A stretch of DNA of 64,000 bases from Candidatus Binatia bacterium (GCA_041488235.1 JBGPOW010000001.1:737-64736); one strand, 5' to 3'. Shown: positions 1,431 through 31,920, counted from the first letter of the stretch. The notes: generated by a model from the sequence alone, not told the origin. A program made the numbers and translations.

Positions 1431-1569
1431 GTGTGTCGCCTCGCGCGCGTACGCGTCATAGTCAAGGCGGCGTGTGCCGCGGCGACGACGAGCACAGATG
1501 CGCCGCTCCGCTGGAGCACGCGCCGTCGAGGATGCTACGCTCGCCGGCCGTGACGATCGGACCTGCGAG

Positions 1570-1953
1570 GTGACGCGTTTCCTCCTCGTCTGCCTCGGCG
1601 GCGCGATCGGTACCGGGGCGCGCTTCCTGGTGTCGGGTTGGGCGCTCGCCCTCCTCGGAGCCGACTTTCCCTACGGCACGCTCGCGGTGAACGTGATCGG
1701 ATCGCTGCTCCTCGGCACGATCATGCACATCGGGCTCACGACGGATCTCTTGTCGCCGACGCTGCGCCTCACGCTGGCAACGGGAGTCATGGGTGGCTTC
1801 ACGACGTACTCGACGTTCAACTACGAGACGCTGCGCTATCTCGAGGAAGGCGCCTGGATGCGCGCCGCGTTGAACGTGCTCGCGACGCTCGTCCTCTGCC
1901 TCGCGGCCGGTGTCGCCGGAGTCGCGCTGGCGCGTCGGGTCGCCGGCGGCTGA
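1570..1953 (+). CDS. crcB: Fluoride ion channel CrcB/FluC
   Basis: GTG start at 1570, inside the longer track ORF 1474..1953. Four transmembrane segments with LGGAIGTGARF...GTLAVNVIGSLLLG...GGFTTYSTF, the canonical CrcB pattern. Confidence 0.8.
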   Translation: MTRFLLVCLGGAIGTGARFLVSGWALALLGADFPYGTLAVNVIGSLLLGTIMHIGLTTDLLSPTLRLTLATGVMGGFTTYSTFNYETLRYLEEGAWMRAALNVLATLVLCLAAGVAGVALARRVAGG

Positions 1954-1956
1954 CCG

Positions 1957-3129: not shown

Positions 3130-3316
3130 CGACCCGCCGCGATCTACCTCATCGAAGAGGCGCCCGAAAGTGCCGTGAAGCCGCGACGGGGTCTACGCGC
3201 GGTTGAAAGTTCTGCGCATGCGTGACCGCGAAACACACGACGATGCGAGCGCGAATGGCCACCACCGTATCGATTGTGGGGCGGCTGCGTGAGGTGGGCA
3301 AATGCCGGCGTAGCGA

Positions 3317-3390
3317 TGGTCGCACCTGGACTCGAACCAGGGACCTCCTGCATGTGAGGCAGGCGCTCTAACCAGCTGAGCTATGCGACC
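3317..3390 (-). tRNA. tRNA-Val (anticodon CAC). No CCA is encoded.
   Basis: Revcomp reads GGTCGCATAGCTCAGCTGGTTAGAGCGCCTGCCTCACATGCAGGAGGTCCCTGGTTCGAGTCCAGGTGCGACCA. It has a 7-bp acceptor stem GGTCGCA/TGCGACC, D, anticodon and T arms, anticodon loop CTCACAT and a TTCGAGT T-loop. Confidence 0.85.
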
Positions 3391-3520
3391 GTGATGAGCG
3401 CCTCGTACCACAGAGGTCTCGCACGCGCCACGTTCCTGCGCGGTGACAACCGACGTGAGCCGACGCACCGCCGCGAAACGCGCGTCAACGTCGAGGCGGC
3501 TGACCGCCGCGAGACGCGCG

Positions 3521-3796
3521 TCAATCGGCGTCGTGTCCCCCGAGCTTTCGGACGCGTTCCTCGAGCTTACCGGTCCGCGTGTCGAGCACGACGTAGCACC
3601 ACCGCCGGTTGTTCGATTCCGTCGCCGACTGGCACGGAACGTCGTCCTTGACGAGCACGTATCGTCCCGCCTCGCGGTGCGACTGCCCGGACGTCACCCA
3701 GAGAACGAGCAGGACGAACACGATGCCGCCGACGAGCGCCCAATGCTCGCGGATCCACGCCAACGGATCGTCCGCGACCTTCACGGGATCAGGCAA
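3521..3796 (-). CDS. Hypothetical small membrane protein (one predicted TM helix)
   Basis: 91-aa ORF with the hydrophobic stretch WALVGGIVFVLLVLWV. Codon usage is consistent with the surrounding genes. No recognisable family. Confidence 0.35.
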   Translation of the reverse strand: MPDPVKVADDPLAWIREHWALVGGIVFVLLVLWVTSGQSHREAGRYVLVKDDVPCQSATESNNRRWCYVVLDTRTGKLEERVRKLGGHDAD

Positions 3797-4100
3797 CGAT
3801 CGGTACCTCCTCGGTGAAGATCAGAGTCGTGCGATCGAGGTCGATGAAGCGGGCCTCGTCGGTGCGGGCGGCGGCGTACTCCGGCGACGCCACGGCGCGA
3901 CGCACCGCTTCCATGTCGTCGAACCACGCCTCCGCGGCACCGTCGTATTCAGCAGTGTCATCCATCGCATGGCACTGCACATACCGACGCATGCCCGGAA
4001 TGCGTGCCGCAATGCTTCCGTGAACCTCGCGCCAGTAGCGGTGAAAGTCGGCCGCGGCCATGCCGGGTTTCCGGCGGATGAGATAGATCGCCTTCACCAT
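3789..4100 (-). CDS. EthD domain-containing protein
   Basis: ATG at 4100 gives the 103-aa product MVKAIYLIRRKPGMAAADFHRYWREVHGSIAARIPGMRRYVQCH...AWFDDMEAVRRAVASPEYAA, the EthD/dimeric alpha-beta barrel pattern. The upstream part of ORF 3789..4436 looks non-coding. Confidence 0.65.
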   Translation of the reverse strand: MVKAIYLIRRKPGMAAADFHRYWREVHGSIAARIPGMRRYVQCHAMDDTAEYDGAAEAWFDDMEAVRRAVASPEYAAARTDEARFIDLDRTTLIFTEEVPIVA

Positions 4101-4361
4101 CGTCAATGAGGGCATCCTACCGGAGCAGTCACGAGCGCTCAAATGACGCGCGGAGCAACAGCTTGCGCGTCGCGCCGGTGACGCGGCGCACGGAGTTGCG
4201 CGATGAATTACTGGGCAGCGCTGTCCACTCGCGCGGCACTCGGTACTCCCGCGACGCACGCTTGGTAAGATTTGCCACACTTTCTTTGCTGCGGCACGCG
4301 AACGAAAGGGTACTTTCTCCGGCATGGGATTTGCGATCGGCCGTGGGTGGGAGGCACGCAC

Positions 4362-4580
4362 GTGATCAATCGCATCTTCTCGGGGACCCGCTGCCGTGTC
4401 GTGCGCCAGGTGCACTATCCCGGCGGCGCCATCCATCGGTTCACTCTCGGTACCATCCGATACGCGATGGAGAACCTCGGCCGCGAGCTCGTGATGGTGG
4501 ATTGGGACACCGGACAGGCAACAGTCGTGTTTCCGACGGACATCGAACTCGTTGCGAGCGAGCAGAGCGCGACTGCTTGA
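4362..4580 (+). CDS. Hypothetical small protein (72 aa)
   Basis: GTG at 4362 is preceded by GGGAGG about 7 nt upstream. The product VINRIFSGTRCRVVRQVHYPGGAIHRFTLGTIRYAMENLGRELVMVDWDTGQATVVFPTD looks globular. It sits in a 500-bp lower-GC gap. Confidence 0.3.
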   Translation: MINRIFSGTRCRVVRQVHYPGGAIHRFTLGTIRYAMENLGRELVMVDWDTGQATVVFPTDIELVASEQSATA

Positions 4581-4601
4581 TCGGTGCCACTCGCGGGCCG
4601 G

Positions 4602-5375
4602 TCATGACGCGAGAACGTCGCGCCGTAACGTGAGCCCGCCGTCGACGACGAGCACCTGACCCGTCACGTAGCCGTCCGGTTCGAGAAAGAAGCGAATTGC
4701 CCGCGCGACGTCCTCGGGACGTCCGAAGCGCGAGATCACCCCGCCCTTCACGTATCGATCGTACTTGCCGCCGCGGATGCTTGCCTCCGCCATGCCGGCC
4801 GCGGTGACCCCCGGGGCGACGACGTTCACGCGGACGTCGGCGCGACCACCCCACTCCTTCGCCAGGACACGCGCCGCGTGCACGAGCGCCGCTTTCGGCA
4901 CCGCGTACGCGAGGCTTCCCTCGAACGCGGCGACGGCTTGCATCGTCGACAATAGGACGATCGCACCTCCCGCGTCGCCGAGCGCGGGACGGAAGTCGCG
5001 CGCCAAGAGCACCGGGCCGAGATAGTTGTCCTGCATCGAGCGCTGCATCTCTTCGGCCGTGGGCGCGCCTGATTTCGGACGCGCCGGATCGCCGGCGAGG
5101 ACGACGAGGCCGTACGGCCGCCCGAGCGCGAGCGCGGCATCGACGAGCGCGCGTCGCGTCGCCGCGTCGCACAGATCGCCGCCGACGACGCTCACCGGCG
5201 CCGTACCGCTCGTTCGTAGCGCGGCGGCAACGCGCTCTGCACGCTCATGATCGGCGCGGTAGCCGAGGACGAGCGGCGCACCTTCGTCGTGCAACATGCG
5301 CGCGACGACGGCACCGATGCCGCCCGTTCCGCCGGCGAGGATGCAGACCCGCCCGGCGAGCGTCGTCGCGTTCAC
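4602..5375 (-). CDS. SDR-family oxidoreductase (3-oxoacyl-ACP reductase-like)
   Basis: TGxxxGIG Rossmann motif (LAGGTGGIGAVVARML), the catalytic YxxxK (YAVPKAAL) and PGVTAAG. A GTG start at 5375 overlaps the upstream gene's stop (GTGA). Confidence 0.75.
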   Translation of the reverse strand: MNATTLAGRVCILAGGTGGIGAVVARMLHDEGAPLVLGYRADHERAERVAAALRTSGTAPVSVVGGDLCDAATRRALVDAALALGRPYGLVVLAGDPARPKSGAPTAEEMQRSMQDNYLGPVLLARDFRPALGDAGGAIVLLSTMQAVAAFEGSLAYAVPKAALVHAARVLAKEWGGRADVRVNVVAPGVTAAGMAEASIRGGKYDRYVKGGVISRFGRPEDVARAIRFFLEPDGYVTGQVLVVDGGLTLRRDVLAS

Positions 5376-5980
5376 GGGCTCGGCTCCGGATGTGTCACGG
5401 AGCGCGCAAATCGGAGAAAGCGTGCGGCCGGGGATTCCCGCGGCGCCGCCTGGGGGCGCGTCGGCCGTTCGGCCGTCCTCGGCAGCGCGGCATACACGAG
5501 GCTGCTCTCGCGGCGATAGAATCCTTCGGTGTGAAACGACCGATCGAGCTTCAGGTACTCGTAGTCGAGATGGTGACACAGCTCGTGCAACAGCGTGCGC
5601 AGAAACGTCTTGAAGGCAACGACCTGGAGACGGCGCGCGGTCCGCATCCAGACCTGCACGCGATCGCGCGTCGCCTTGCCGTTGGCCGGCGTGTAGAGAC
5701 CGTGCAGCTCGCCGTAATGGTTGGTGGGACGCTTGCCGCAGACCTCGACGCGTAACGGCGGAACGCGCAGCAGCTCACAGAAGACGTCGACCAGCTGCTG
5801 ACTCACGCCCTCGACACGCCGTCGGTCCTCGGTCGCGAGGGCGCCCGCGAGTGCCGCGACACGGACGCGGACGAGCGGGCTCGGCGGAACACGAATCGCC
5901 GTGACCGCGTTGCTGCGCGCGTACGCGCGCTCGTCGGACCGACTGAAGCTGCGACGACCGTACAGCATGAGCTGACGCAC
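5372..5980 (-). CDS. HExxH-motif putative zinc metallopeptidase (SprT/YgjP-like, uncharacterised)
   Basis: FLRTLLHELCHHLDYEY is preceded by a GELHGLYTP...I...L pattern reminiscent of SprT-like domains. Translationally coupled to the SDR gene. Confidence 0.5.
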   Translation of the reverse strand: MRQLMLYGRRSFSRSDERAYARSNAVTAIRVPPSPLVRVRVAALAGALATEDRRRVEGVSQQLVDVFCELLRVPPLRVEVCGKRPTNHYGELHGLYTPANGKATRDRVQVWMRTARRLQVVAFKTFLRTLLHELCHHLDYEYLKLDRSFHTEGFYRRESSLVYAALPRTAERPTRPQAAPRESPAARFLRFARSVTHPEPSP

Positions 5981-6130
5981 CCCTCCGACACGCGCCGCGT
6001 GTCACGTCCCCGCCGGACGCGTCCGGCACACTAGGAAGGTTCCGGTTGCGATGCAACGACCGCGTCACTCTCATTGCCTGCCTGGGCCCCCTTTGGTAAG
6101 CACTGGCGGCCAACGTACAGGAGGACCCTG

Positions 6131-6556
6131 ATGATCCGAATCGTTCCATCCGTGTTCACCGTTCTCGCACTGATGGTGCTGCTGGCGGCGTGTACCCGTG
6201 ACGAGCACAAGGCCGCCGCTGTGCCGACGGCGACGCCCGCCAAACTCGCTGTGCCCGCCGCCGCGCCGCAGCCGCAGGCGTCGGGCGAAGAGGTCGACGA
6301 ACTATACGTCGATCTCGATGCCGATCCCGACGAGGGCGCCCCGCCGCTCACGGTGAAGTTCACGAGCACCGTCGAGGACGCCACGCCGCCGCTCACCTAC
6401 AAGTGGGATTTCGGCGATGGCTCGGCGCCTGGGACGGAGGCGAATCCAACGCACGTTTATCAAAAGGCCGGCGAGTACACGGCGACGCTGACGGTGAAGG
6501 ATTCCAAAAACATCAGCGGCTCCGAAGAAGTCGACGTCCTCGTCGAGGGGGAGTGA
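6131..6556 (+). CDS. PKD domain-containing lipoprotein
   Basis: ATG at 6131 with AGGAGG 6 nt upstream. Signal peptide with lipobox LLAAC. PKD signature LTVKFTST...YKWDFGDGS...HVYQKAGEYTATLTVKD. Confidence 0.65.
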   Translation: MIRIVPSVFTVLALMVLLAACTRDEHKAAAVPTATPAKLAVPAAAPQPQASGEEVDELYVDLDADPDEGAPPLTVKFTSTVEDATPPLTYKWDFGDGSAPGTEANPTHVYQKAGEYTATLTVKDSKNISGSEEVDVLVEGE

Positions 6557-6578
6557 CTCGCACGCGAACGCCATAGAG

Positions 6579-6607
6579 TTGACAATCTTGACGCGCCGTG
6601 TTAAATC
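6579..6607 (+). promoter_or_regulatory. Sigma-70-like promoter for the phasin gene (-35 TTGACA, 17-bp spacer, -10 TAAATC)
   Basis: TTGACA at 6579-6584 and TAAATC at 6602-6607. RBS GAAAGGGG lies about 8 nt before ATG 6643. Confidence 0.35.
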
Positions 6608-6642
6608 GCACTCACTCTCGCAGTTGAAAGGGGTGAGTCCAC

Positions 6643-7041
6643 ATGGCCGAAACGAAATCCGATGGCCTCCGCGCCCGGTTGCAACAGGTGCAGAGCACGA
6701 TTCAGCGCGCGCAAAAAGAGGGTGAGCGCCTCGTCGGCAGGTTCCGCAAGGACGCCAGAGACCTGCTCGGGAAGGATCGCGAAAAGGCGGTCCGAGATCT
6801 CCTCGCGCAGGCGCAGAAGCTCCGTGCCGACATTCAGCGGCGCGCCGAGCGTGCGGTGAAGGACATCGAGGAGCGCGGGCAAAAGATCGTGAGCGCGCTC
6901 GAGAAGCAGGCGGAGCGAGGTCTCGAGCCGCTCGTGCGCAGCCTCAATCTTCCCACGCGCGATGAAATCGAGAAGCTGAAGAAGCGCGTGGCGCACGTCG
7001 AGAAACGTCTGGAAGAAATCGCTGGCAGCAAAGCTGCCTGA
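6643..7041 (+). CDS. Phasin family (PHA granule-associated) protein
   Basis: Coiled-coil protein of 132 aa. The C-terminal LNLPTRDEIEKLKKRVAHVEKRLEEI matches the phasin (TIGR01837-type) hallmark. Confidence 0.75.
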   Translation: MAETKSDGLRARLQQVQSTIQRAQKEGERLVGRFRKDARDLLGKDREKAVRDLLAQAQKLRADIQRRAERAVKDIEERGQKIVSALEKQAERGLEPLVRSLNLPTRDEIEKLKKRVAHVEKRLEEIAGSKAA

Positions 7042-7091
7042 GTCGCGCGTGACGCGATCTCGTCGCGTCGGCGCAAGAAAACGTTTCAACC

Positions 7092-7162
7092 TTGCTCACC
7101 GGCAGGGGGAGGAACTTCGTTCGGAAGAGATCGGCCGCTGACGAGCGGCTGCCGGTGAGCAA
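7092..7162. terminator. Large convergent, bidirectional hairpin between phasin (+) and hyuB (-)
   Basis: Perfect 14-bp inverted repeat TTGCTCACCGGCAG...CTGCCGGTGAGCAA with an internal CCGCTGACGAGCGG sub-hairpin. There is no T-run, which is common in high-GC genomes. Confidence 0.4.
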
Positions 7163-7166
7163 GAAC

Positions 7167-8765
7167 CTATCGCAACGACCGTCGTGAGCGCCGCGGCCGC
7201 GATCCCCAGCCACCGCCTCCTGGCGTCTCGATCCGCAGCACGTCTCCGCGTCGCACCCGCACGTTGACCTTCCCGGGGAGCGCTCGCCAACGGCCGGCGT
7301 GGGCGAGGAAGTTTCGGCCCGCGCTACCCGTCGCGCCGCCGGCGAGGCCGTACGGGCCTCGTCTTCGGCGCTCGGTCAGGAGCGTCAGATCGGCGTCGGT
7401 GAGAAACCGCAGCTCGCGGACGATGCCATCGCCGCCCGGATTTCGACCCCCGCCACCGCTGCGCCGACGGATCGCGTAGCGCTCGACGCGCAACGGGTAG
7501 TAGCTCTCCAACGCTTCGATGGGTGTGTTGAGGGTGTTCGTCATATGCGTGTGCACCGCCGACGCGCCGCTGCCGCTCGGCCCGCCGCCGGCACCGCCCG
7601 CGAGCGTCTCGTAATACGAGAAGGCGCGACCGCGAACGTCGTCGAAGCCGCCGACCGCGACGTTGTTCATCGATCCGGCGCTCGCAGCCGGAATCCGTTC
7701 GGGCGCCGCCTTCGCGAGCGCGCGTAACAAGACGTCGACGATGCGTTGCGAGGTCTCGACGTTGCCGCCGGCGACGGCGGCGGGAAACTCGGCGTTCACC
7801 ACGGTCCCGCTGGGGGCGACGACCCGGATGCGCTCGAGCAAGCCTTCGTTCGCCGGAATCGGGTCCTGTGCGAGGGCGGTGAAGACGTAGAACACCGCCG
7901 ACAGCGTGATCGCGTAGTTGGCGTTCAGGCTTCCCTGCACCTGCGGCGCTGTGCCCGTGAAATCGACGAGCGCCCGCCCGTCGCGGATCGTGATCGCAAC
8001 GCGAATCGGAACGTCGCGCGCGTCGAGACCGTCGTCGTCGAGGACATCGACCGCGGTGTAACGCCCCGGAGGCAACGTACGGAGCGTCGTCGCGATCAAT
8101 CGCGCGGTGTACCGTTGCAGCGCCGCCATGCCGCGATGGAGACGCGCCGCGCCGAACGTGGACGCGAGATCGCGGACGCGGCGGGCACCGATCGCGAGTG
8201 CGGCGCGTTGCGCGTCGAGATCGCCACGACGCTCCTCTGGCACGCGCGTGTTGGCGAGAAAGAGCGTGAGAATGTCGCGCTCGAGTACGCCACGCCGGAC
8301 GAGCCGCACCGGCGGCATGCGAAATCCTTCTTGGTGGATCTCGCGCGCGAGCGGCATCGAGCCGGGACTCATGCCGCCGATGTCGGCATGGTGCGCACGG
8401 TCGGCGACGAATCCGAGGAGCCGCCCGCGCGCGTCGTGCGCCGGCGCGACGAGCGTCACGTCCGGCAGGTGGGTGCCGCCCGCATACGGGTCGTTCAGCA
8501 CGACGACGTCTCCTTGCGCCAAGCGGAAAGCGGCGAGCGCCGCGCGCACCGACAGCGGCGTCGAGCCGAGATGCACCGGCACGTGGGCCGCGTGGGCGAC
8601 CATTCGTCCTGCGGGATCGAAGACGGCGCATGAGAAGTCGTACCGCTCCTTGATGTTCGGAGAGAAGCCGCTGCGCCCGAGGACGACGCCCATCTCGTCG
8701 GCGATCGCGGCGAGTCGGTGATGGAGCACCGCGAGCGCGATCGCATCGAACCCGCGCACGCTCAT
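7167..8765 (-). CDS. hyuB: Hydantoinase B/oxoprolinase family protein
   Basis: MSVRGFDAIALAVLHHRLAAIADEMG...SPNIKERYDFSCAVFDPAGRMVAHAAHVPVHLGS is the canonical HyuB N-terminus. ATG at 8765 overlaps the hyuA stop (ATGA). Confidence 0.85.
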   Translation of the reverse strand: MSVRGFDAIALAVLHHRLAAIADEMGVVLGRSGFSPNIKERYDFSCAVFDPAGRMVAHAAHVPVHLGSTPLSVRAALAAFRLAQGDVVVLNDPYAGGTHLPDVTLVAPAHDARGRLLGFVADRAHHADIGGMSPGSMPLAREIHQEGFRMPPVRLVRRGVLERDILTLFLANTRVPEERRGDLDAQRAALAIGARRVRDLASTFGAARLHRGMAALQRYTARLIATTLRTLPPGRYTAVDVLDDDGLDARDVPIRVAITIRDGRALVDFTGTAPQVQGSLNANYAITLSAVFYVFTALAQDPIPANEGLLERIRVVAPSGTVVNAEFPAAVAGGNVETSQRIVDVLLRALAKAAPERIPAASAGSMNNVAVGGFDDVRGRAFSYYETLAGGAGGGPSGSGASAVHTHMTNTLNTPIEALESYYPLRVERYAIRRRSGGGGRNPGGDGIVRELRFLTDADLTLLTERRRRGPYGLAGGATGSAGRNFLAHAGRWRALPGKVNVRVRRGDVLRIETPGGGGWGSRPRRSRRSLR

Positions 8766-23557: not shown

Positions 23558-23603
23558 GCCGCGCCACGCTCTGAGCCGTCGCACGAGACGGCTCGACGGA
23601 AGC

Positions 23604-24047
23604 TCAGCTCCCCGGGCGCCGCGCCCGGGGGGCTTTTTCGTCCGCGCTCGAACTGAGCGCGCCGATCGCGACTGCCGCCGCGACGAGCGCCGTGTCGCGC
23701 GCGACCGTGAGCACCGTCACCGGCGCACGCACGCTTCCGAAGCACCCGCAGTCGAGGTTGATGTCGCGGGCGAGCGCCTGCACTGCAGCGACGGTAAACG
23801 CGACGAGAAGTGCGGTCGCGAGGACGGCGGCGGCACGGACAGTGCGGGGATACAAAAGCCCGAGCCCGCAGACGATCTCGACGCCCGGCACCGTCGCCGA
23901 GAACGGCGCCACCAAAGGCGCCGGCAGCAGTCGATAGTTCGCGACGTCGGCGGCGAACGCACGGACGTCCGCGAGCTTTGCGACGCCCGCGTAGAGAAAG
24001 AGTGCGGCGAGCACCGTGCGCAGCAACCACCAGGAGATCACGCGCAT
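23604..24047 (-). CDS. MauE/DoxX-family membrane protein
   Basis: Four TM helices, the CGCFG motif and VPGVEIVCGLGLL. Confidence 0.7.
   Translation of the reverse strand: MRVISWWLLRTVLAALFLYAGVAKLADVRAFAADVANYRLLPAPLVAPFSATVPGVEIVCGLGLLYPRTVRAAAVLATALLVAFTVAAVQALARDINLDCGCFGSVRAPVTVLTVARDTALVAAAVAIGALSSSADEKAPRARRPGS
23610..23638 (+). terminator. Rho-independent terminator after groEL
   Basis: CCCCGGGCGCCGCGCCCGGGGGG stem-loop followed by CTTTTT. It overlaps the 3' end of the convergent MauE/DoxX gene. Confidence 0.6.
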
Positions 24048-24063
24048 CGCTTGCGGCTACGGG

Positions 24064-24531
24064 TCAGTTGCAGATTTCGCACGGCCCGGACGCGGCGCTC
24101 CCGCCGCCGTCACGCCAGGCCCGGAAGCCGCCGCTCAGGACACGCACGTCGCCGTACCCGCTCGCGGCGAGCGACTGCGCGACGGGACCCGGGTCGGCGT
24201 CCTCGCCGCCGTACAGGACGACGGTCGAAGATTTCGCGACGCTCGCCAGCCACTCTGGCGCCTCGGCGCTGCACGGCAAGTGCACGGCGTCGACGACGTG
24301 CCCGACGGCATATTCTGATGCGCCGCGCACGTCGCCGAAGATCGCTTCGTGTGCTTCCAGGAGGCGTATCGCCGCCGCGACGTCGATGCGCGCAGGCTCC
24401 AAGGACGCCATCGCGCACTCCGCGGTGCCTTCGGTTTCGGCAACCCAGGACCGCAGCACCGAGACGCCGGCCGGGTGCAGCGAGTTCACACAGAGCCCGA
24501 GGAGCGCCCCTGCGGTGGCGAGCGTGAGCAT
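24064..24531 (-). CDS. Rhodanese-like domain protein with signal peptide
   Basis: Internal ATG at 24531. MLTLATAGALLGLCV signal peptide. A rhodanese fold is inferred from DVRGASEYAVGHVVDAVHLP...VVLYGGED...GYGDVRVLSGGFRAW, although the catalytic Cys position reads ...YGGED rather than a canonical CxxGxR loop. Pairs with the MauE/DoxX gene. Confidence 0.7.
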   Translation of the reverse strand: MLTLATAGALLGLCVNSLHPAGVSVLRSWVAETEGTAECAMASLEPARIDVAAAIRLLEAHEAIFGDVRGASEYAVGHVVDAVHLPCSAEAPEWLASVAKSSTVVLYGGEDADPGPVAQSLAASGYGDVRVLSGGFRAWRDGGGSAASGPCEICN

Positions 24532-24744
24532 CTGCAATACCGTGCGCACCGTCCCGCATTGTCGCGTCCCGAGGCGCGACTCGCAACTCCGACGGGCGAT
24601 CGGTACGGCGTTGACGGACGAAGCCCGCCATTGCGTCACGTACGGGGAGCAAAACCAGCCAGTACCAGGCCAACCCGGCCCGAAATAGGCCGTCACCAAG
24701 CGGCGACGCATGAGCATCGTAGAGACGATCAAGAACGCGGTAAC

Positions 24745-24966
24745 TCAGCTCGCGCCGTCGAGCCCGAGATCATGGGCGAGCCGCTTCGGAATGACGAGCG
24801 TCCCCTGGTCGCCGGGAGACCGCACGTCGCTGGTGCGGTCGATCAAGTGCAGCGGCACGCCAATGCGTCGCCGGTCGGGCAGCTCGCAGATCAGGACGAG
24901 CCCGTTACTCACGGCACGGACGTGCGCCACGCGCACGAGATCGGAAACGGGGGAATCGTACAGCAT
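24745..24966 (-). CDS. Hypothetical small protein (73 aa), family unresolved
   Basis: The ORF sits between the rhodanese gene and the CheY-like regulator. Its C-terminus TLVIPKRLAHDLGLDG is loosely AbrB/SpoVT-like. Confidence 0.25.
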   Translation of the reverse strand: MLYDSPVSDLVRVAHVRAVSNGLVLICELPDRRRIGVPLHLIDRTSDVRSPGDQGTLVIPKRLAHDLGLDGAS

Positions 24967-25077
24967 AGTGGACCTGCTTCCTTGCAGAGGTTCCTAGCGC
25001 CTCCCCGCGCCCCTCAACCCGCCCCAATTCCGGCGAGAGATGTACTCCGAAGCGGGAAGGAAAAACTACGCGGATCT

Positions 25078-25524
25078 CTACGCGCGTAGCGTTGATCCTG
25101 CGGTGAACTGGGCGGGCGCGCGCTGACGTTCGCAGTGCCGGTCGACGGCCGCGACCACATCCGGCCCGTCGATCGGCTTCAGTAGAAACTCCCGAATGCC
25201 GACTTTCTTCGCCCGAGCATCATCCGCCACATCGCCGGACAGAATCACGACCGGAGTTTTCACGACCTCGGGGTGAGCCTTCATGCGCTCCCAGACCGTC
25301 CAGCCGTCCATCCCCGGCATGCGTACATCGAGGAGGATAACGCACGGTCGAAGGCCCGCCTGCAGCATGTCAAGCGCTTCCGGTCCCGACGCCGCTCCGA
25401 CCACATCGAAGCCCATCGCCTGAAGCAACGTGACAATCGCCTCCCGGGTGTCCGTATAGTCATCGACGACCAGCACGTTGTGGCGAGAGTGGATCTCGTG
25501 GGACACCCCCGATTGCGTCGGCAT
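25078..25524 (-). CDS. Single-domain response regulator (CheY-like receiver)
   Basis: VLVVDDYTDTREAIVTLLQAMGFDV...ILLDVRMPGMDGWTVWERMK...VILSG...K. Confidence 0.75.
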   Translation of the reverse strand: MPTQSGVSHEIHSRHNVLVVDDYTDTREAIVTLLQAMGFDVVGAASGPEALDMLQAGLRPCVILLDVRMPGMDGWTVWERMKAHPEVVKTPVVILSGDVADDARAKKVGIREFLLKPIDGPDVVAAVDRHCERQRAPAQFTAGSTLRA

Positions 25525-25643
25525 GCTTCGGGCCTAGTCGTGGGGCGGGTGCTAGTCAAAACGCGGCGAGGACACGTGCGCGTGGTCCGTTGCCGCACCG
25601 CCCATGGTCCTATCGGTGCTATGGACGCTGCCCACAGTAGTCA

Positions 25644-25710
25644 AATCCGAGCACTCACCCGCTGAAAACCGAGCACTCGACGTCCTGGCCGACCAACTCC
25701 GAGCAGTACT
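25644..25710. repeat. Array of three AATCCGAGCAC / CCGAGCAGTAC motifs with about 22-bp spacing. It is the left boundary of the accessory island and is inverted relative to the array at 27831-27889.
   Basis: aaatccgagcactc at 25644, aaaaccgagcactc at 25666, ctccgagcagtac at 25698. Confidence 0.5.
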
Positions 25711-25905
25711 TGACGATGAGGAGGGTCGGAGCCCTGGCGTCCATCGCGCCGACCGACGACCAGGGCAATCAAGCAAAGGGCCGCTGCTTGCACCCTGGCA
25801 GGTCAGCGCAGCGGCCCGTGGTCGGTTCTTTGGTTCAACGCACCCTGCCCACGGCTGGAACCGTGGGCAGGGCCGAACACCGAGTGGTGGACCACCCGAT
25901 GCCCG

Positions 25906-26962
25906 TTGCAGCTACGGATTCTGGTCCGCCACTTGGGGAAAGACAAGTGGCCCGTGAACGTCCTCTCGTCTGAGAAGCAAACCCGCGTGATCGCCGCTCT
26001 CACTGAAGGCTGCTCCGTCCGCGCGACCGAGCGTCTGACCGACGTGCATCAGGAGACGATTCTCAACCTGAGCCGCCGCGTCGGCGAGGGCTGCCACCGT
26101 CTCCTCGACGGCATGCTCCGTGGCCTTCAGGTCGGCGTGATCGAGCTCGACGAGCAGTGGTCGTTTATCGGCTGCAAGCAGAAGAACGTCCGCGACGGCG
26201 AGCGCGAGCGCGGCGACTCGTGGCTCTTCATCGCGCTCGATGCGACTAGCAAGGCCGTCCTCAGCTACCGCATCGGCAAGCGCACGACGCAGAACACGAT
26301 GGCGCTCGCGCAGGACTTGCACGCGCGGCTCGTGAACCGGCCGCAGATCACGGCCGATGGATTCGTGCCCTACGTCAACGCCATCGCCGACGTGTTCGAC
26401 CGCAAGGTGGACTTCGCGCAGCTCATGAAGCACTACGGCACGCCGGCCGGAAACGAGGCGGCGGTGCGCTACTCCCCGGGCTCCATAAGAGGCATCGAGA
26501 AGCAGGTCGTCTGCGGCGCACCCGACGAGACGAAGATCAGCACCTCGTACGTCGAACGCTTCAACCTCTCGACGCGGATGCACCTCCGGCGCTTCACGCG
26601 GCTCACGAACGCGTTCTCGAAAAAGCTCGCGAACCACCGCGCGGCGATCGCGCTGCACCTTGCGTACTACAACCTGGTGGCGCATCCACGAAACGATCCG
26701 CTGCACGCCCGCGATGGCGCTCGGCGTGACCGATCATCCGTGGACCGTGGCCGAGCTGGTCGAGGCGGCGCTCAGCGCGCCGGAACCGACGCCGCTCCTT
26801 CCGACGCAGCCGCCGCTCCCGTTCGGCATGAGCGCCGGGCGCGCGAAGGGTACGTGGGGCGGTGCGCTCGCGGATCGGCCGAGGCCGACCAAGAACAAGG
26901 GCAACCCTGGGCCGAAAAGATTCCGGGTGATCAAGGGCGGGCGCGATCGCGCGGGGTCGTAG
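25906..26962 (+). pseudogene. IS1-family transposase (InsAB-like fusion), frameshifted near the C-terminus
   Basis: IELDEQWSFIG..WLFIALDATSKAVLSYRIGKRT..ITADG..STSYVERFNLSTRMHLRRFTRLTNAFSKKLANH aligns block-by-block with E. coli IS1 InsB. The frame breaks after ...AYYNLV (ORF 25906..26985) and resumes in ORF 26660..26962 (RIHETIRCTPAMALGVTDH...KRFRVIKGG). The intact paralog at 29014..30045 reads through in a single frame. Confidence 0.7.
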
Positions 26963-27089
26963 CCCCTGCGCGGGGCAATCCTTGACGCTAGCAAGTGCTG
27001 TGCTACGCTTCGATCGAATTGCTGAGCAATCAACTCCTCGTAGTTGAATGGACTTTGGGCGCAGGGCATAGTCGTCGGTAGGAGGCCAG

Positions 27090-27329
27090 ATGCATTCAGA
27101 CTTCCTTTTCGCCCGCCCTTCCAGACTCGCAGGATTGGCGCGTCTACTCGATTTCTTCGGGACGTTCGACGACTACAACACGAGTCCGTCACGCCCGCTC
27201 GCTGACGCGCGCGCGGTATATACTGACTGGGTCGTTACGGCAGACGACATTCGCAACGCGATGGCCGCCGTGAAGGCGCTGGAGCGTGACCCAAGTCAGG
27301 GCGAGTTATTCCCAGCAGTCGCTGGGTAG
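27090..27329 (+). CDS. Hypothetical protein (79 aa), coupled to the DUF2335 gene
   Basis: Its TAG stop directly abuts the ATG of the next gene (gggTAGATGagc). No family recognised. Confidence 0.35.
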   Translation: MHSDFLFARPSRLAGLARLLDFFGTFDDYNTSPSRPLADARAVYTDWVVTADDIRNAMAAVKALERDPSQGELFPAVAG

Positions 27330-27767
27330 ATGAGCAAGAAGGGCCGGGACCGGCAACTCGCTCATCAGCGTCAGCAGATCACTGCTCAGCGGCGCCTTGA
27401 GATCTTCCAGGGTCCGCTTCCCTCTCCCGACGTCCTGATTCGCTACAACGATGCGGTTCCTAACGGAGCTGAGCGTATCCTTGTCATGGCCGAAGGGCAG
27501 GCGACTCACCGTCAGGGGCTGGAGCGCGCTGTCGTCAACGGCAACATCCGAGCGCAGGCCCGCGCTCAGCGCTACGGGCTAGTAATCATCCTTGCGGTCG
27601 TCGCTGTTGGCGCGTGGCTGATGTCGCAGGGAAAGGACGGCTACGGGTTCGGTACGATCCTCGCGGGACTCGCCAGCCTCGTAGGCGTGTTCATGTGGGG
27701 CCGGTATCGCCAAGAACGTGAACGGCGGGAAAAGGCAGAGCAGTTTCAAGGCTCACCCGTCGGATAG
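27330..27767 (+). CDS. DUF2335-family membrane protein
   Basis: GPLPSPDVLIRYNDAVPNGAERILVMAEGQATHRQGLE... followed by two TM helices, which fits my recollection of DUF2335. Confidence 0.55.
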   Translation: MSKKGRDRQLAHQRQQITAQRRLEIFQGPLPSPDVLIRYNDAVPNGAERILVMAEGQATHRQGLERAVVNGNIRAQARAQRYGLVIILAVVAVGAWLMSQGKDGYGFGTILAGLASLVGVFMWGRYRQERERREKAEQFQGSPVG

Positions 27768-27830
27768 AGCGTCGCGACTTCCCGCTACGACTCACGACGG
27801 CGAACGGCAATCGCGCTGTTGGCGTTAGGT

Positions 27831-27972
27831 GGTCGGATTCGCCCGCGTCACGGGGGTGCTCGGATTTGACGCCCAGGGTGCTCGGATTCGGCGGCGCGAC
27901 GGCCAGAACCGAGCAGTACCCGACTAGCGGTACTGTCCTAACTAGGACACCCGCGGATTGAAAGTAGGACAC
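27831..27972. repeat. Repeat-rich junction with three GGTGCTCGGATT motifs of about 22-bp period, the 15-bp CAGTACCCGACTAGC repeat, the palindrome GTCCTAACTAGGAC and two TAGGACAC iterons
   Basis: ggtcggattc at 27831, ggtgctcggattt at 27855, ggtgctcggattc at 27877, gagcagtacccgactagc at 27911-27928, gtcctaactaggacac at 27935-27950, taggacac at 27965. Confidence 0.55.
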
Positions 27973-28099
27973 TCGCGTCTACTGGCCAAAATCGGGGGGG
28001 CCGTTTTTTCCTCGACGGCCACCCCTCGACCGTGGCACCCTGCGCGCACCAAATCTCGGCCGCCCCCGTCGGGCCCCCTAACGCCAGGAGGATTAGCCC

Positions 28100-28942
28100 A
28101 TGTTCCGCGTCTCTCGTCTGCTCGTCGCCGCCTCGCTCACACTCGCCGCTGCGTCGCCCGCGCGCGCCGGAACGCTCAAGTGCCCCGCCGACTCGGTGAA
28201 GGTCGGCAACGCCTGCATCGACCTCTACGAGACCAGTGTCTGGCAGATCGCCCCGTCAAACACGTCCCTCGTCAAGGCGGTGCAGAAAGGCAAGGCGACG
28301 CTCGCCACCCTGACTGCGGGCGGCGCCGTGCAGCTCGGCTGCACCTTCGCACCATTCAGTCAGACGGCCTATCCGACGAATTTCCCGAATAGCGGCCAGT
28401 GGACGCCGGTCCTCGGATCGGTGCCGCCGAGCCCGGGCGTCTACGCGGTCTCGATCCCCGGCGTGCTGCCGAGCTCGTGCATCACCTGGTTCCAAGCGGC
28501 ACAGGCGTGCGGCGTCTCGGGGAAGCGTTTACTCACGAATCTTGAGTGGCAGAATGCGGCGGCGGGGACGCCCGATCCGGGAACGGACAACGGCACGACG
28601 GACTGCAACATCTCCACCGCCGGCAACCCGGTGAACACCGGATCGCGATCGAACTGCAAGTCGAGCTGGGGCGCGTTCGACATGGTCGGCAACGTCGACG
28701 AGTGGGTGGCGGATTGGGCGGATCTCAACACGACGGGCTGCACCGATTCGACGACCTTCTTCGGCTTCGCCGGCACCGGTGATCAAATATGTTTCGGCGG
28801 GGACGGTAGTCCGAAAGCTCCGGGGGCGTTGCGTCGCGGCGGCATTTGGGTCAGCGGCGCGGGCGCCGGCGTCTTCTCCGTGAATGCCGCCTTCGGTCCG
28901 GCGTTCTCGTTCCTCAACGTCGGGTTCCGCTGTGCCCGCTGA
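28100..28942 (+). CDS. Secreted FGE-sulfatase/SUMF1-domain protein (formylglycine-generating-enzyme family)
   Basis: Signal peptide MFRVSRLLVAASLTLAAASPARA. C-terminal FDMVGNVDEWVADW...RGGIW...GFRCAR, the hallmark ending of the SUMF1/FGE fold. Confidence 0.7.
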   Translation: MFRVSRLLVAASLTLAAASPARAGTLKCPADSVKVGNACIDLYETSVWQIAPSNTSLVKAVQKGKATLATLTAGGAVQLGCTFAPFSQTAYPTNFPNSGQWTPVLGSVPPSPGVYAVSIPGVLPSSCITWFQAAQACGVSGKRLLTNLEWQNAAAGTPDPGTDNGTTDCNISTAGNPVNTGSRSNCKSSWGAFDMVGNVDEWVADWADLNTTGCTDSTTFFGFAGTGDQICFGGDGSPKAPGALRRGGIWVSGAGAGVFSVNAAFGPAFSFLNVGFRCAR

Positions 28943-29000
28943 GTCGTCCCGGGCTTTGGCCCTTTGACAGTTTGATCTTTGGCTCTCCTCGGGTGTGGAG

Positions 29001-29032
29001 GGGCGGGCGGCTGTTACGGCTGCCGCCCGCCC
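29001..29032. terminator. GC-rich hairpin (11-bp stem) overlapping the stop of the second IS1 transposase, between the FGE gene (+) and the transposase gene (-)
   Basis: GGGCGGGCGGC-tgttacggct-GCCGCCCGCCC. No T-run. Confidence 0.3.
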
Positions 29033-30045
29033 TTGATCACGCGGAAGCGTTTCGGTCCTAGATTACCGCGCGTCTTGTTCGGCCGCGGGCGATCCGCCAG
29101 CGCGCCGCCCCAGGTGTTCTTCGCGCGACCGGCGCTCATGCCTCTGATCGGCTCCGGCGCGGGCGCCATCGGCGGCGCCGTCGGCGCGCTCAACGCCGCG
29201 TCGATCAACTCGCCGATCGTCCACACGTGGTCAGTGATGCCGAGCGCCATTGCAGGCGTGCAGCGCAACGCCTCGTGGACGCGGCAGAGATTGTAGTGGG
29301 CGATGTGCAGCGCAATCGCGGCCTGGTGATTCGCGAGCTTCTTCGAGAAGCCGTTCGTCAGGCGCGTGAACCGGCGTGACGCCATCCGCGTCGTCAAGTT
29401 GAAACGCTCGACGTAGCTCGTGCTGATCTTCGTGGGGTCTGGGTCGCCCTGAAGCACGGTGCGCTCCGTGCTTCTTATCTTGCCCGGTGAGTAGCGAACC
29501 GCGGCCTCGTTTCCGATCGTCACGGCGTAGTTCTTCACGATGGTCGCGAAGTCCACGTCGTCGCCGAACGCGCGCTCGATTGCATCGGGGTACGCGGACC
29601 AGCCGTCCGCCGTGATCTGCGGCCGGTTGAGCACCCGTGCGCGGAGATCGGAGACGATGGCGCGGGTGTTCTCGGTGCTGCGCTTCCCGACGACGTACGT
29701 CAGGACGGCCTTGCTCGTCGCATCGAGCGCGAGGAACAAGTAGCAGTCGCCGTATTCCTTCGGATCTTCGGGGCGGACGCGCTTCGCCTTCTTGAACAAA
29801 AACGACCAGCTCTCATCAAGCTCGATTACGCTGACCTGAAGGTTGCGGAGCATGCCGTCGAGCAGCCGACGGCATCCGTCGCCGACCTGGACGCCGAGCC
29901 GCATCACGGTGTCGCGGTGCGTGTCGGTCAGGCGCTCCGTCGCGCGGATCGAGCAACCTTCCGTCAGCGCGCCGACGATGCGGGTTTGGGTCTCACGAGA
30001 GAGGGTATTCACGGGTGTTGCCTTCCTCCGAGGGGCGACCCACAA
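29014..30045 (-). CDS. IS1-family transposase (InsAB-like fusion), apparently intact
   Basis: 343 aa with an HTH N-terminus (TRIVGALTEGCSIRATERLTD) and IELDESWSF...YLFLALDATSKAVLTYVVGKRS...ITADGWSAYPD...STSYVERFNLTTRMASRRFTRLTNGFSKKLANHQAAIALHIAHYNLCRVHEALRCTPAMALG... It is about 70% identical to the frameshifted copy by eye and lies in the opposite orientation. Confidence 0.8.
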   Translation of the reverse strand: MWVAPRRKATPVNTLSRETQTRIVGALTEGCSIRATERLTDTHRDTVMRLGVQVGDGCRRLLDGMLRNLQVSVIELDESWSFLFKKAKRVRPEDPKEYGDCYLFLALDATSKAVLTYVVGKRSTENTRAIVSDLRARVLNRPQITADGWSAYPDAIERAFGDDVDFATIVKNYAVTIGNEAAVRYSPGKIRSTERTVLQGDPDPTKISTSYVERFNLTTRMASRRFTRLTNGFSKKLANHQAAIALHIAHYNLCRVHEALRCTPAMALGITDHVWTIGELIDAALSAPTAPPMAPAPEPIRGMSAGRAKNTWGGALADRPRPNKTRGNLGPKRFRVIKGGRQP

Positions 30046-30089
30046 TCGAAGCGTCTGACGGCATCGGGTGGGTAACCGCTCGGTGTTGG

Positions 30090-30125
30090 CCCCGCTCTCG
30101 GCTCCAACCGGGAGCGGGGTTTTTG
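30090..30125 (+). terminator. Rho-independent-type terminator (CCCCGCTC...GAGCGGGG + TTTTT) in the IS left end, oriented to block plus-strand read-through
   Basis: 8-bp stem, 14-nt loop, T5 run. An equivalent position in copy 1 has a hairpin without a T-run. Confidence 0.4.
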
Positions 30126-30219
30126 TTTGCGGTCCACTTGCTCACGAGACGAATGTTGCCACATTCGTCCTACGTAGTCAAGCGTTGACGCCGTAGGCTT
30201 TCTGTGGCAACAATCGTCC

Positions 30220-30387
30220 ATGCCTAAACCCAAACGAAAGCCGAAGGCCCTCCGGAAAGAGGACTCCATTCGGATTCGCGTCTCGGCCGAGCAAAAAAAG
30301 ACGCTGACGGCCGCTGCCGAGCGGGCGGGCCTGGACGTGTCGTCCTGGCTCCGCACGCTCGGCATGCGGGAGGCCGCTAGCGGCTAA
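30220..30387 (+). CDS. Small ribbon-helix-helix protein (CopG/MobC-like), 55 aa. Not in the ORF track because it is shorter than 60 aa.
   Basis: ATG at 30220 gives MPKPKRKPKALRKEDSIRIRVSAEQKKTLTAAAERAGLDVSSWLRTLGMREAASG, a classic RVS..EK..L...A...G.S.S.WLR pattern. A TTGACG -35-like element lies about 30 nt upstream. Confidence 0.5.
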   Translation: MPKPKRKPKALRKEDSIRIRVSAEQKKTLTAAAERAGLDVSSWLRTLGMREAASG

Positions 30388-30651
30388 GCCCGCGTCTTCT
30401 CACGCCCCAGCGGCGGATCTTCGTGCGATACGTACTGATCCACGCGGGCGTGATGCCGGCCATCCACCTGAGTACCCGTGCTCTCATGGGTACACCTCCA
30501 CCTCTTCAAAAAGGCGGCGGAATGTGGAAGGATCGCGGTTAGTTGGTTCTTCCGCGAGCTTCGTTTCCCGTCGCTCGTTGCAGTTCTGGCGAACTGCGTG
30601 CCGAGGTCTTGAACACCTCGGCACGCATCGCCGCTCCCGCCCAGCAGCAAA

Positions 30652-30855
30652 CTAAGTCACGGCCTCGTTGACACCTCCGTTTCGCGCGCCTCGATGCGCG
30701 CGAGTTTTCTCGCGGATGGCCTTCTGCACCGCGTCGGCAACGAAGGCTTCCATGGTCGTGTCGCATCGCGCGGCGACGATCTTGACCTCGTTGCGGAACG
30801 ATTTGCTAACCCGGACGGCGAGCAGGACCGCGTGTTGTTCGGACTTCATACCCAT
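30652..30855 (-). CDS. Small ribbon-helix-helix-like DNA-binding protein (67 aa from an internal ATG)
   Basis: MGMKSEQHAVLLAVRVSKSFRNEVKIVAARCDTTMEAFVADAVQKAIREK shows a beta-strand plus two-helix RHH pattern. The track ORF extends to 30936, but that start would collide with the divergent gene at 30935. A perfect 10-bp-stem hairpin GTGCCGAGGT/ACCTCGGCAC lies about 30 nt downstream. Confidence 0.4.
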   Translation of the reverse strand: MGMKSEQHAVLLAVRVSKSFRNEVKIVAARCDTTMEAFVADAVQKAIREKTRAHRGARNGGVNEAVT

Positions 30856-30934
30856 ACCCTCGCACAGTCTGACGGGTAACTCTAGCTTTTTAGCCGTCAG
30901 GTGATACCGTCTGACGCAGAAAAGTAACGCGCAC

Positions 30935-31843
30935 ATGGCCGAGTCCAGTCAGACACGTGGAAACGAGCGGCGAACCGACGCGATGCATTCGCTTGCGCGC
31001 GCCGTCGCGTTCGCCAATCTCGACTTGGAATGCCCGGAAGCGCAGTGGGAAACGCAACGCCACATCGTCGGCACTAAGGCGACGCCGCTGCGCGTACTCT
31101 GCCACTTTCGATTCCCGGATGAATTCGGGCGCGCTTTGCGGATGCCACCCGGCGGTCGCGAGGCCAAAGTGACGAGCGGTCCCCGGCAGCTCGTGCCGAT
31201 TGACCTGCTCGACACTGAAGACCCGCTGGAAGCGCAGCGCCACATGCGCACGCTCCTCACGGACATCATCACGGGCAACTCGCGCGGCGTCATCGCCGCG
31301 TTGCAGTCGGTCACGGTTTCCGTCCGTATGGGTGTCGCGATGGCCCGCGACGACACGAAGCGGTCCCGGCCATCACGGCGTCATCCGTCGCTGGACGTGT
31401 GGTATGAGTCGCCGCTCGGCTACGACGAGCTGCGCTACGGTGTCGTGCTCGGTGGGGTCGCTACGCTCTATCACCGCCTCGGCCGATGCCGGTCGTGCAA
31501 TCGGTTCATCCTCGCCAAGACCGACCGTCCAGTACGGTACTGTGCTAACCGGGAGTGCCAGCCGCGCGGAGCGCCCAAGCCGCGCGGAAAGGCGCCGAGC
31601 GTAACAGCCGGCTACAAGCGCCAACAGCGCGCGCGGCAACAGCGGTGGGACGAGCATCGCGACCGCATGCGAGCGGCGTTGAACGGCACGCCGTCCGTGC
31701 GCGGCCTCACGAAGCTCGTGCGCCAGGGAGAACGACTGTTGGAGGAGTGCTTCCGGTGGAAGGAGTCACCAGCGCGGAAAGATGCGGCGCGCGTGCTGGA
31801 TCAAGCCCGCGACCGAATTAGGACACTCGGAGCTTCAACTTAG
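30935..31843 (+). CDS. Hypothetical 302-aa protein with a C4 zinc ribbon (CRSCNRF...YCANRECQ) and a basic C-terminal region
   Basis: Long clean ORF. No family recognised. Its last codons and stop lie inside the TAGGACAC iteron array. Confidence 0.5.
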   Translation: MAESSQTRGNERRTDAMHSLARAVAFANLDLECPEAQWETQRHIVGTKATPLRVLCHFRFPDEFGRALRMPPGGREAKVTSGPRQLVPIDLLDTEDPLEAQRHMRTLLTDIITGNSRGVIAALQSVTVSVRMGVAMARDDTKRSRPSRRHPSLDVWYESPLGYDELRYGVVLGGVATLYHRLGRCRSCNRFILAKTDRPVRYCANRECQPRGAPKPRGKAPSVTAGYKRQQRARQQRWDEHRDRMRAALNGTPSVRGLTKLVRQGERLLEECFRWKESPARKDAARVLDQARDRIRTLGAST

Positions 31844-31880
31844 GACACTGGCGGGGAAGATAGGACAGTACCCGACTAGC
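31819..31880. repeat. Three TAGGACA(C/G) iterons at 22-bp spacing followed by the 15-bp direct repeat CAGTACCCGACTAGC. Right boundary of the island.
   Basis: taggacac at 31819 and 31841, taggacag at 31861, cagtacccgactagc at 31866-31880. The same 15-mer occurs at 27914-27928. The palindrome GGTCCTATAGG follows at 31906. Confidence 0.55.
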
Positions 31881-31920
31881 ATTTGCGTTGACTTACCGGG
31901 CGACGGTCCTATAGGTTTTC

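Follow-up and report, generated by a model that had tools for sequence, protein, structure and literature searches.

A probable nest of two IS1-family unit transposons with passenger genes upstream of ffh in a Candidatus Binatia bacterium

A 64,000-nucleotide stretch of DNA from a Candidatus Binatia bacterium (hereafter the window) carries, upstream of ffh, a segment that we interpret, at a probability of roughly 85%, as a nest of two insertion sequence 1 (IS1)-family unit transposons with passenger genes, one of them intact (E2) and the other decayed (E1). What carries this interpretation are the ends of E2, its target duplication, its family membership and an architecture that recurs across the family. 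The original prediction had described a single accessory island; its claim that the segment is mobile, acquired DNA holds, and two IS1-family transposons were found there, but the history is one of at least two separate insertions of cargo-bearing IS1-family transposons as opposed to the arrival of one island. The features that define E2 are as follows.

27929 to 31872, + strand: E2, an IS1-family transposon with passengers (3,944 bp, 12-bp inverted repeats, 8-bp duplication, 22 relatives alike)
27921 to 27928, + strand: left copy of the target duplication, CGACTAGC, from the unbiased scan described below
27929 to 27972, + strand: E2 left end; GGTACTGTCCTA, 2 bp (AC), TAGGACAC at 27943, 14 nucleotides, and TAGGACAC again at 27965 (22 bp on)
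29014 to 30045, − strand: E2 transposase gene IS1b, 343 aa in one uninterrupted frame, PF03400 40 bits
30088 to 30121, + strand: terminator-like hairpin between the divergent transposase and ribbon-helix-helix genes, 14 pairs then a T-run; position kept in the related loci L002 and L082
31819 to 31872, + strand: E2 right end; TAGGACACT, TAGGACACT 22 bp on, and TAGGACAGTACC 20 bp further
31873 to 31880, + strand: right copy of the target duplication, CGACTAGC, from the sequence and from the same scan

E2 terminates in perfect 12-bp inverted repeats (GGTACTGTCCTA on the left, TAGGACAGTACC on the right), both of which start with GGTACTG and so have the GGnnnTG form of IS1 ends, and an exact 8-bp target duplication, CGACTAGC, is present on both flanks. 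The left junction (27909-27972) reads, in order, CCGAGCAGTACC, CGACTAGC and GGTACTGTCCTA-AC-TAGGACAC-N14-TAGGACAC, while the right junction (31819-31893) reads TAGGACACT-N13-TAGGACACT-N11-TAGGACAGTACC, CGACTAGC and ATTTGCG-TTGACT. An unbiased scan for inverted repeats with target duplications (12-mers that pair, with one mismatch or none, with an inverted copy at a distance of 0.9-6 kb and have matching flanks) was applied to 10 kb around the segment and returned this single architecture, 27929/31872 with CGACTAGC on both sides. The 8-mer TAGGACAC occurs four times in the 64 kb, against 0.32 expected, and all four copies lie inside the two arrays. Spacings of 22 bp recur at 25647/25669, 27854/27876, 27943/27965 and 31819/31841. 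The repeats with a 22-bp period and the shared 15-mer that had been proposed as marks of the island are thus real, although their identity is different: they are transposon ends and a target duplication, neither island edges nor attachment (att) sites. The arrays are extra terminal-type 8-mers, phased, beside each end, and the 15-mer, CAGTACCCGACTAGC, which has exactly two occurrences, is composed of 7 bp of terminal repeat (CAGTACC, common to the termini of two different elements) and the 8-bp duplication. Separately, a near-copy of the E2 left terminus, CGGTACTGTGCTAACCGGGA, lies at 31535-31554 within the passenger gene orf302 (17/20 against 27928-27947); together with the E2 right end it would enclose a 337-bp mini-element, and either chance or an alternative end could account for it.

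On this layout, the terminal GGTACTGTCCTA repeats would be binding sites of the E2 transposase, which would most likely also recognise the additional TAGGACAC sites, spaced at about two helical turns. After cleaving at the GG ends, the enzyme would join them to a target whose two strands are cut 8 bp apart, giving rise to the CGACTAGC duplication. E2 landed directly against the older E1 terminus, 15 bp upstream of TTGACT, the probable -35 box of ffh, and we infer that it may still be active today.

The same architecture is found well beyond the window. A metagenome scan with the E2 transposase yielded a family set of 80 loci (designated, like other related loci, by L numbers), among which the scan for inverted repeats and duplications identified 19 complete elements of 1,970-5,230 bp. 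Three further complete members reside on finished plasmids from cultured Alphaproteobacteria: Mesorhizobium loti (3,370 bp, duplication CGCTGGTG), Acidiphilium multivorum (2,634 bp, AAGCCGAG) and Hoeflea sp. (4,224 bp, GATGATTG). All 22 relatives have GG[T/C][A/G][C/G]TG termini and a duplication that differs at every site; its length is exactly 8 bp in 21/22 and 9 bp in L142. Six close relatives (L088, L090, L093, L094, L103 and L115) share the end layout of E2 exactly: on the left, two TAGGACAC sites come after the terminus and point the opposite way, and on the right two TAGGACAC sites precede a terminus that has their orientation. More distant members have plain inverted repeats of ~18 bp, GGTAGTGTCCTAATTTGA. 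The transposase gene is the sole gene universal to the family. Homologues on the plasmids, 41% identical, are named "IS1 family transposase" by PGAP. Elements of the E2 type are therefore already present in finished plasmids under an IS1 annotation, and the proposal that the block might be something undescribed does not stand.

The variability of the flanks also bears on a second explanation, namely that the segment is a site-specific island in which the 15-mer CAGTACCCGACTAGC is the att core, the half-sites and 8-mers are core and arm sites, and the enzyme is an unrecognised recombinase such as orf302. The junction at 27909-27940 does resemble a recombinase site, having inverted 12-mers around an 8-bp spacer and directly repeated 8-mers on its arms, and orf302 is an unclassified protein of DNA-binding type encoded at the end of the element. 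We nevertheless find this explanation scarcely credible. The flanking 8 bp (9 bp in one case) vary from site to site among the 22 relatives, which identifies them as a target duplication rather than a shared core, and the left half of the 15-mer is terminus sequence from two different elements. Moreover, orf302 is absent from every other complete relative and recurs only in a partial element, L082. Profile searches of the segment proteins detected no integrase, serine recombinase or relaxase domains, and a tRNA scan of 20-36 kb found no tRNA genes. The observation that integrase and relaxase are lacking was therefore accurate, but mobilisation need not have been left open, as the transposases already noticed are themselves the mobilisation machinery.

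The assignment to the IS1 family starts from the transposases. The E1 copy (IS1a) and the E2 copy (IS1b) score 46.9 and 40.0 bits, respectively, against Pfam PF03400 (DDE_Tnp_IS1; cut-off 24.1), and IS1b shares 68-73% identity with its counterparts in L002, L082, L085 and L086. D77, D147 and E213 are near-invariant across 23 aligned family transposases and are the likely DDE triad. According to ISfinder, the hallmarks of IS1 are GGnnnTG ends and 8-9-bp duplications (PMC10425158 Table 8; PMC6807381 Discussion). E2 resembles the IS1 family in its DDE_Tnp_IS1 match, its GGnnnTG termini, its 8-bp duplication and the IS1 annotation of its plasmid homologues. It differs from a classical IS1 (740-1180 bp, with the two ORFs (open reading frames) insA and insB' joined by a -1 frameshift) in its 3.9-kb length, its single 343-aa frame, its four to five passenger genes and the extra 8-mers phased 20-22 bp beside its termini. 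The part of the family closest to E2 is the branch of long, single-ORF members, the "ISMhu11" subgroup, with lengths of up to ~4.6 kb; a literature search on that name gave no match, and neither did one with the three 12-mer terminal repeat sequences.

Derivatives of insertion sequences that carry passenger genes are a recognised category, the transporter insertion sequences (PMC9330008). E2 is built in this way, with one transposase, one pair of inverted repeats and the passengers within: the FGE, ribbon-helix-helix, orf65 and orf302 genes all lie inside the 27929-31872 repeats. The category is a structural one and not a family, and the cargo of E2 and E1 is free of resistance genes. The ends also resemble those of the Tn7, Mu and Tn552 type, in which a short motif is repeated at ~22 bp near each end with left/right asymmetry. 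This is a likeness of layout only, given that there are no homologues of TnsA/B/C or MuA/B, that the duplication is 8 bp as opposed to 5 bp, and that the termini are GG and not TG. A Tn7-like transposon was rejected for the lack of TnsA, TnsB and TnsC domains and for the length of the duplication.

To the left of E2, and abutting it, lies E1 (~25644-27920), which is probably an old, rearranged and immobile relative with orf79 and a DUF2335 gene as its cargo.

25644 to 25710, + strand: array A; AATCCGAGCAC, AAACCGAGCAC 22 bp on, a degenerate CCGACCAAC and a terminus-like CCGAGCAGTAC
25843 to 25871, + strand: hairpin upstream of the E1 transposase gene, aligning with those of E2, L002 and L082 (stems differ)
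25906 to 26985, + strand: E1 transposase pseudogene IS1a, PF03400 46.9 bits; true C-terminus in the 26660-26962 frame
27090 to 27329, + strand: orf79, coupled to the DUF2335 gene; no family match
27330 to 27767, + strand: DUF2335 membrane protein (DUF2335 2.5e-14; phrog_3996 membrane protein 2e-27)
27828 to 27920, − strand: array B-left, the E1 end near the 3' end of the transposase gene; from the terminus, GGTACTGCTCGG and three AATCCGAGCAC-type sites in the opposite orientation

Array B-left has the layout of the E2 left end and of the six close relatives, but with another 8-mer, CCGAGCAC, at both its terminal and subterminal sites, and it sits 3' of the frameshifted transposase gene, as expected of a left end. 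Terminal and subterminal sites have both switched 8-mer between E1 and E2, an argument for their recognition by a single protein. No further elements of this CCGAGCA type were found in about 170 loci. As originally described, the two IS1-family transposase genes form an inverted pair, one member of which is frameshifted. Both pass the Pfam DDE_Tnp_IS1 cut-off, and the + strand copy, IS1a, contains one extra base near 26676, absent from IS1b and L002, which puts its last ~90 codons out of frame; in the protein alignment, homology is lost after "YYNL". The coupling of orf79 to the DUF2335 gene was likewise borne out, by a TAGATG overlap. The position of the hairpins upstream of the transposase genes is conserved between copies while their stem sequence varies. 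A local alignment shows array A to mirror the three subterminal sites in B-left (1/2000 shuffles scored as high), which suggests that E1, or an older copy, has an end array there. The hairpin follows array A after only ~130 bp, and the region corresponding to the ribbon-helix-helix, repressor and orf302 genes is therefore missing from E1.

Two IS1-type transposase genes in inverted orientation around ~2 kb of cargo could also be taken for a composite transposon, the two copies of which jointly move the intervening orf79-DUF2335-FGE DNA. This seems highly improbable. DNA identity between the copies is only 71-81%, and one of them is frameshifted; neither is surrounded by a tight inverted-repeat pair of IS size, and their homology extends no further than the stop codon on one side and the upstream hairpin on the other. 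Furthermore, the true ends enclose each transposase gene with its own cargo, the two copies are separated by an E1/E2 end junction (27909-27940), and the two elements use different end motifs.

Several observations weigh against a nest of two unit transposons of this family. The NCBIfam IS1 model (NF033558) returns 66.3 and 75.0 bits for the two transposases, under its curated cut-off of 100, a shortfall that marks a distant branch and not classical IS1. Neither an empty site (its junction would read CCGAGCAGTACCCGACTAGCATTTGCGTTGACTT) nor a second copy of E2 was found in support of recent movement; the sole other assembly of the organism, L165 (99.97% identical, with a contig that starts at 27814), carries the same junction. 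The left end of E1 forms no clean inverted repeat with its right end, the terminus-like CCGAGCAGTAC being on the inner side of array A. A canonical left terminus for E1, sought as GGTACTGCTCGG on the + strand and as a third CGACTAGC, gave nothing convincing, and GGTGCTATGGAC at 25615 is a weak candidate only. Finally, the end arrays of L002 (204-262 and 4621-4675) are opposite to the canonical orientation with respect to the transposase gene and have no matching duplication. An internal inversion, the presence of two different elements or an artefact in the assembly of a metagenome-assembled genome (MAG) could each account for the situation in L002.

It might also be supposed that nothing was acquired recently, the arrangement upstream of ffh being ancestral to the lineage and lost in relatives such as L001. 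In keeping with this, L002 (ffh 75% identical) likewise has an IS1-type transposase (68%), a ribbon-helix-helix gene (77%) and an end-array terminus 15 bp from the TTGACT of ffh, and the shift in base composition is small. We judge it unlikely, however. E2, with flawless repeats (12/12) and duplication (8/8), stands beside a visibly decayed E1 and must be the younger of the two. The cargo of L002 is different, with 269-aa and 105-aa ORFs in place of orf65 and orf302, and groEL adjoins ffh in L001, L006 and L009. In addition, the family prefers N8-N7-TTGAC targets (see below), such that independent insertions at the ffh promoter are to be expected.

The comparison with relatives also redraws the surroundings of the two transposons. 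The closest genomes are MAGs of uncultured "delta proteobacterium" and of Binatia.

23558 to 25643, − strand: lineage-specific stretch, variable but outside the transposons; none of its four genes is found between groEL and ffh in L001, L006 and L009
23604 to 24047, − strand: DoxX/BT_3928-like gene (family match)
24064 to 24732, − strand: rhodanese gene (family match)
24745 to 24966, − strand: 73-aa ORF
25078 to 25524, − strand: cheY, within the variable stretch
31888 to 31915, + strand: putative ffh promoter, TTGACT, 16 nt, TATAGG; TTGAC 15 bp outside the E2 terminus

Among the relatives that still possess groEL, the three closest, L001 (ffh 79% identical), L006 and L009, have groES-groEL ~150-290 bp from ffh, and relative to these genomes the window has 8.3 kb inserted (23558-31880). 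Since groEL adjoins ffh in the relatives, the variable stretch begins at 23558, not at the island boundary of 25640 given previously, and cheY is no conserved neighbour, contrary to the role assigned to the CheY-like regulator. The G+C content of the segment, 64.8% against 68.2 ± 2.0% for 6.2-kb windows of the 64-kb stretch, is indeed the lowest of all; the drop, at ~1.8 standard deviations under the mean, is weak. Two short sequences to the left of E1 recall the ancestral intergenic region. GGCGGGTGCTAGTCAAAACG at 25543-25562 resembles the groEL-ffh spacer of L001 (17/20; 2/2000 shuffles score as high), and CGTTGCCGCACCGCCCATGGTCCTATCGGT, within 25543-25625, is weakly like the ffh promoter region 31885-31916 (77/2000 shuffles). 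The former suggests that the ancestral groEL-ffh spacer was split, and a remnant or duplicate of the spacer and promoter may persist there. In another Binatia genome, L008 (5722-10000), ~4.3 kb separate groEL from ffh and contain no homologue of any island gene of the window, and the interval between groEL and ffh may be prone to variation in general. A scan of 23-33 kb against Rfam, with E up to 1, gave only sub-threshold chance matches.

On the other side of E2, the pattern TTGACT-N16-TATAG(G/A) is common to the window and L002, and CCTATAGG is found in L001 as well; TTGACT-N16-TATAGG is the presumed promoter of ffh. The longest ffh ORF runs from GTG 31921, which had been taken as the start, but alignment with L001 and L002 (MFDTLGDKL) places the start at GTG 31963. 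This leaves a leader of ~40 nt after the putative -10 box.

The position of E2 relative to this promoter is not an isolated case. Flanks were taken from about 30 family elements, with TTGAC found beside L082, L110, L115, L122, L131, L135, L137, L155, L157 and L167 and at 31888-31892 of the window. In 7/28 non-redundant right-end flanks, TTGAC occurs exactly 15 bp outside the terminus (8-bp duplication, 7 bp, TTGAC). With a background of 0.00094 per position, the binomial P for the right side is about 8e-16, and every other offset from 0 to 55 has at most one occurrence. The window and L002 share one site, leaving six independent right-end cases. The motif is found at the same offset in 4/40 candidate left-end flanks and in the Acidiphilium plasmid element. 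TTGAC was considered, and rejected, as a part of the element: in complete elements it lies outside the duplication and is therefore target DNA. The notion that every TTGAC is a real promoter was also dropped, a plausible -10 box being seen by eye in some flanks only, and an intrinsic sequence preference of the transposase is accordingly the more economical reading.

A second kind of target is the end of a resident element. Three independent end-to-end insertions with an 8-bp spacer were found, at 27909-27940 of the window, in the right flank of L115 and in the left flank of L133. In the window, the CGACTAGC target starts at the base right after the E1 terminus. Across the three cases, the abutting partner is sometimes a different member of the family. 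This suggests that insertion is aimed at resident ends. Taken together, this branch may pick its target by sequence, making its 8-bp staggered cut exactly 7 bp away from TTGAC, which puts the terminus 15 bp upstream of a -35-like hexamer, and also inserting beside resident ends, and thereby park upstream of sigma-70 promoters while leaving genes unbroken, a proposal to which we give about even odds. In a further version, promoter-bound RNA polymerase or sigma factor, and not the transposase alone, may guide insertion. IS30-type target choice involves a long symmetric hot-spot and insertion next to the element's own inverted repeats. The present family is similar in its insertion beside a resident terminus (window, L115 and L133) and in having a motif that stands at a fixed distance from the duplication, on one side or both; unlike IS30, it has a transposase of another family and another putative target motif, TTGAC 7 bp outside the 8-bp duplication.

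The passengers of E2, whose roles as given here are putative, are encoded on either side of the transposase gene.

28100 to 28942, + strand: FGE/SUMF1-domain protein, 280 aa, probably secreted (PF03781 2e-12, residues 122-280; signal peptide by eye)
30220 to 30387, + strand: RHH55, a 55-aa ribbon-helix-helix protein (NikA/MobA/TraJ-like), divergent from the transposase gene (PF21983 33.2 bits, cut-off 27)
30652 to 30849, − strand: orf65, a putative 65-aa ribbon-helix-helix repressor, divergent from orf302 (HicB-like ribbon-helix-helix region, weak, 4.8e-4)
30935 to 31843, + strand: orf302, 302 aa, with a four-cysteine zinc ribbon (C185, C188, C203, C208), CGNR/ABATE-like; stop codon within the right-end array

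The FGE domain of the supposedly secreted FGE/SUMF1 protein is supported by its profile match, while secretion was judged from the N-terminus by eye only. With respect to the two tiny ribbon-helix-helix genes noted previously, the 55-aa protein is above its Pfam cut-off and the 65-aa second protein matches only weakly. For orf65 the longest ORF extends to 30936, and the JGI call is the 65-aa form; in L082 and L083 an HTH_3/Xre gene occupies its position. L002 encodes an RHH55 homologue (77% identical) that is likewise divergent from the transposase gene, and homologues lie divergently upstream of the transposase gene in 14/62 loci with enough upstream sequence, in both close and distant branches. 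RHH55 is probably a recurrent partner of the transposase that regulates it; as it is not accompanied by a relaxase, a role at an origin of transfer (oriT) is not implied. Related elements (L116, L122, L134, L142, L088 and L090) encode a type IV restriction enzyme, GmrSD (both domains, 1e-25 to 1e-28), the abortive-infection protein Abi_alpha (5e-17) or a P63C-domain protein (9e-24), which makes the family a carrier of cargo of the phage-defence type. The cargo in the window itself gave no defence family with PADLOC.

For the 302-aa protein, profile searches confirmed that there is no direct family match. Its nearest relatives are probably ABATE/CGNR zinc-finger proteins (PF07336/PF11706; structure 3h0n), from which it differs in having no Pfam match itself, no CGNR signature and a long C-terminal helical extension. 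Among four more distant relatives, two have zf-CGNR above its cut-off, and DUF6076 falls below its own. The family is tiny: a search of 5.8e9 clusters yielded six proteins, and one of 1.8e9 gave 17 representatives at E<=1.3e-20. The four cysteines are invariant across it. In L082 the order of transposase gene, hairpin, small gene, small repressor, orf302 and right end is that of E2; its orf302 homologue is 40% identical, and its TAGGACACT array overlaps the stop codon of that gene, as in E2. L081 and L084 contain members of the orf302 family and no IS1 transposase, which makes orf302 cargo or an accessory, not a core component. The closest homologue (51% identical) is that of L081 (ENA contig_15149, 836-8654), in another mobile context where its neighbours encode a 757-aa tyrosine integrase, a 621-aa serine recombinase, RadC and an HTH_17 excisionase-like protein. 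Between the repressor gene and orf302, GTCTGAC(G/A) motifs are repeated or inverted in both the window (30850-30934) and L082 (3590-3680). They are kept although the repressor is ribbon-helix-helix-like in the former and Xre-type in the latter, and are possibly an operator read by orf302.

What had looked like an island of unexplained kind thus resolves into ordinary, nameable parts, the movement of which is attributed to their own transposase, and its annotation should change with respect to the island boundaries, the start codon of ffh and the standing of cheY as a conserved neighbour. The analysis describes a poorly documented branch of IS1 with 1-4 kb of cargo and with ends that carry several phased putative binding sites. 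The remaining interest lies in these multi-site ends, in the choice of TTGAC and of abutting ends as targets, and in the rare CGNR-like orf302 family. Sequence-based target choice, if true, would account for the presence of such elements at the ffh promoter in two genomes. Should the preference for TTGAC be intrinsic, the family would offer a simple system for target choice by a DDE transposase, and the preference would explain the gathering of these elements at the promoters of essential genes.

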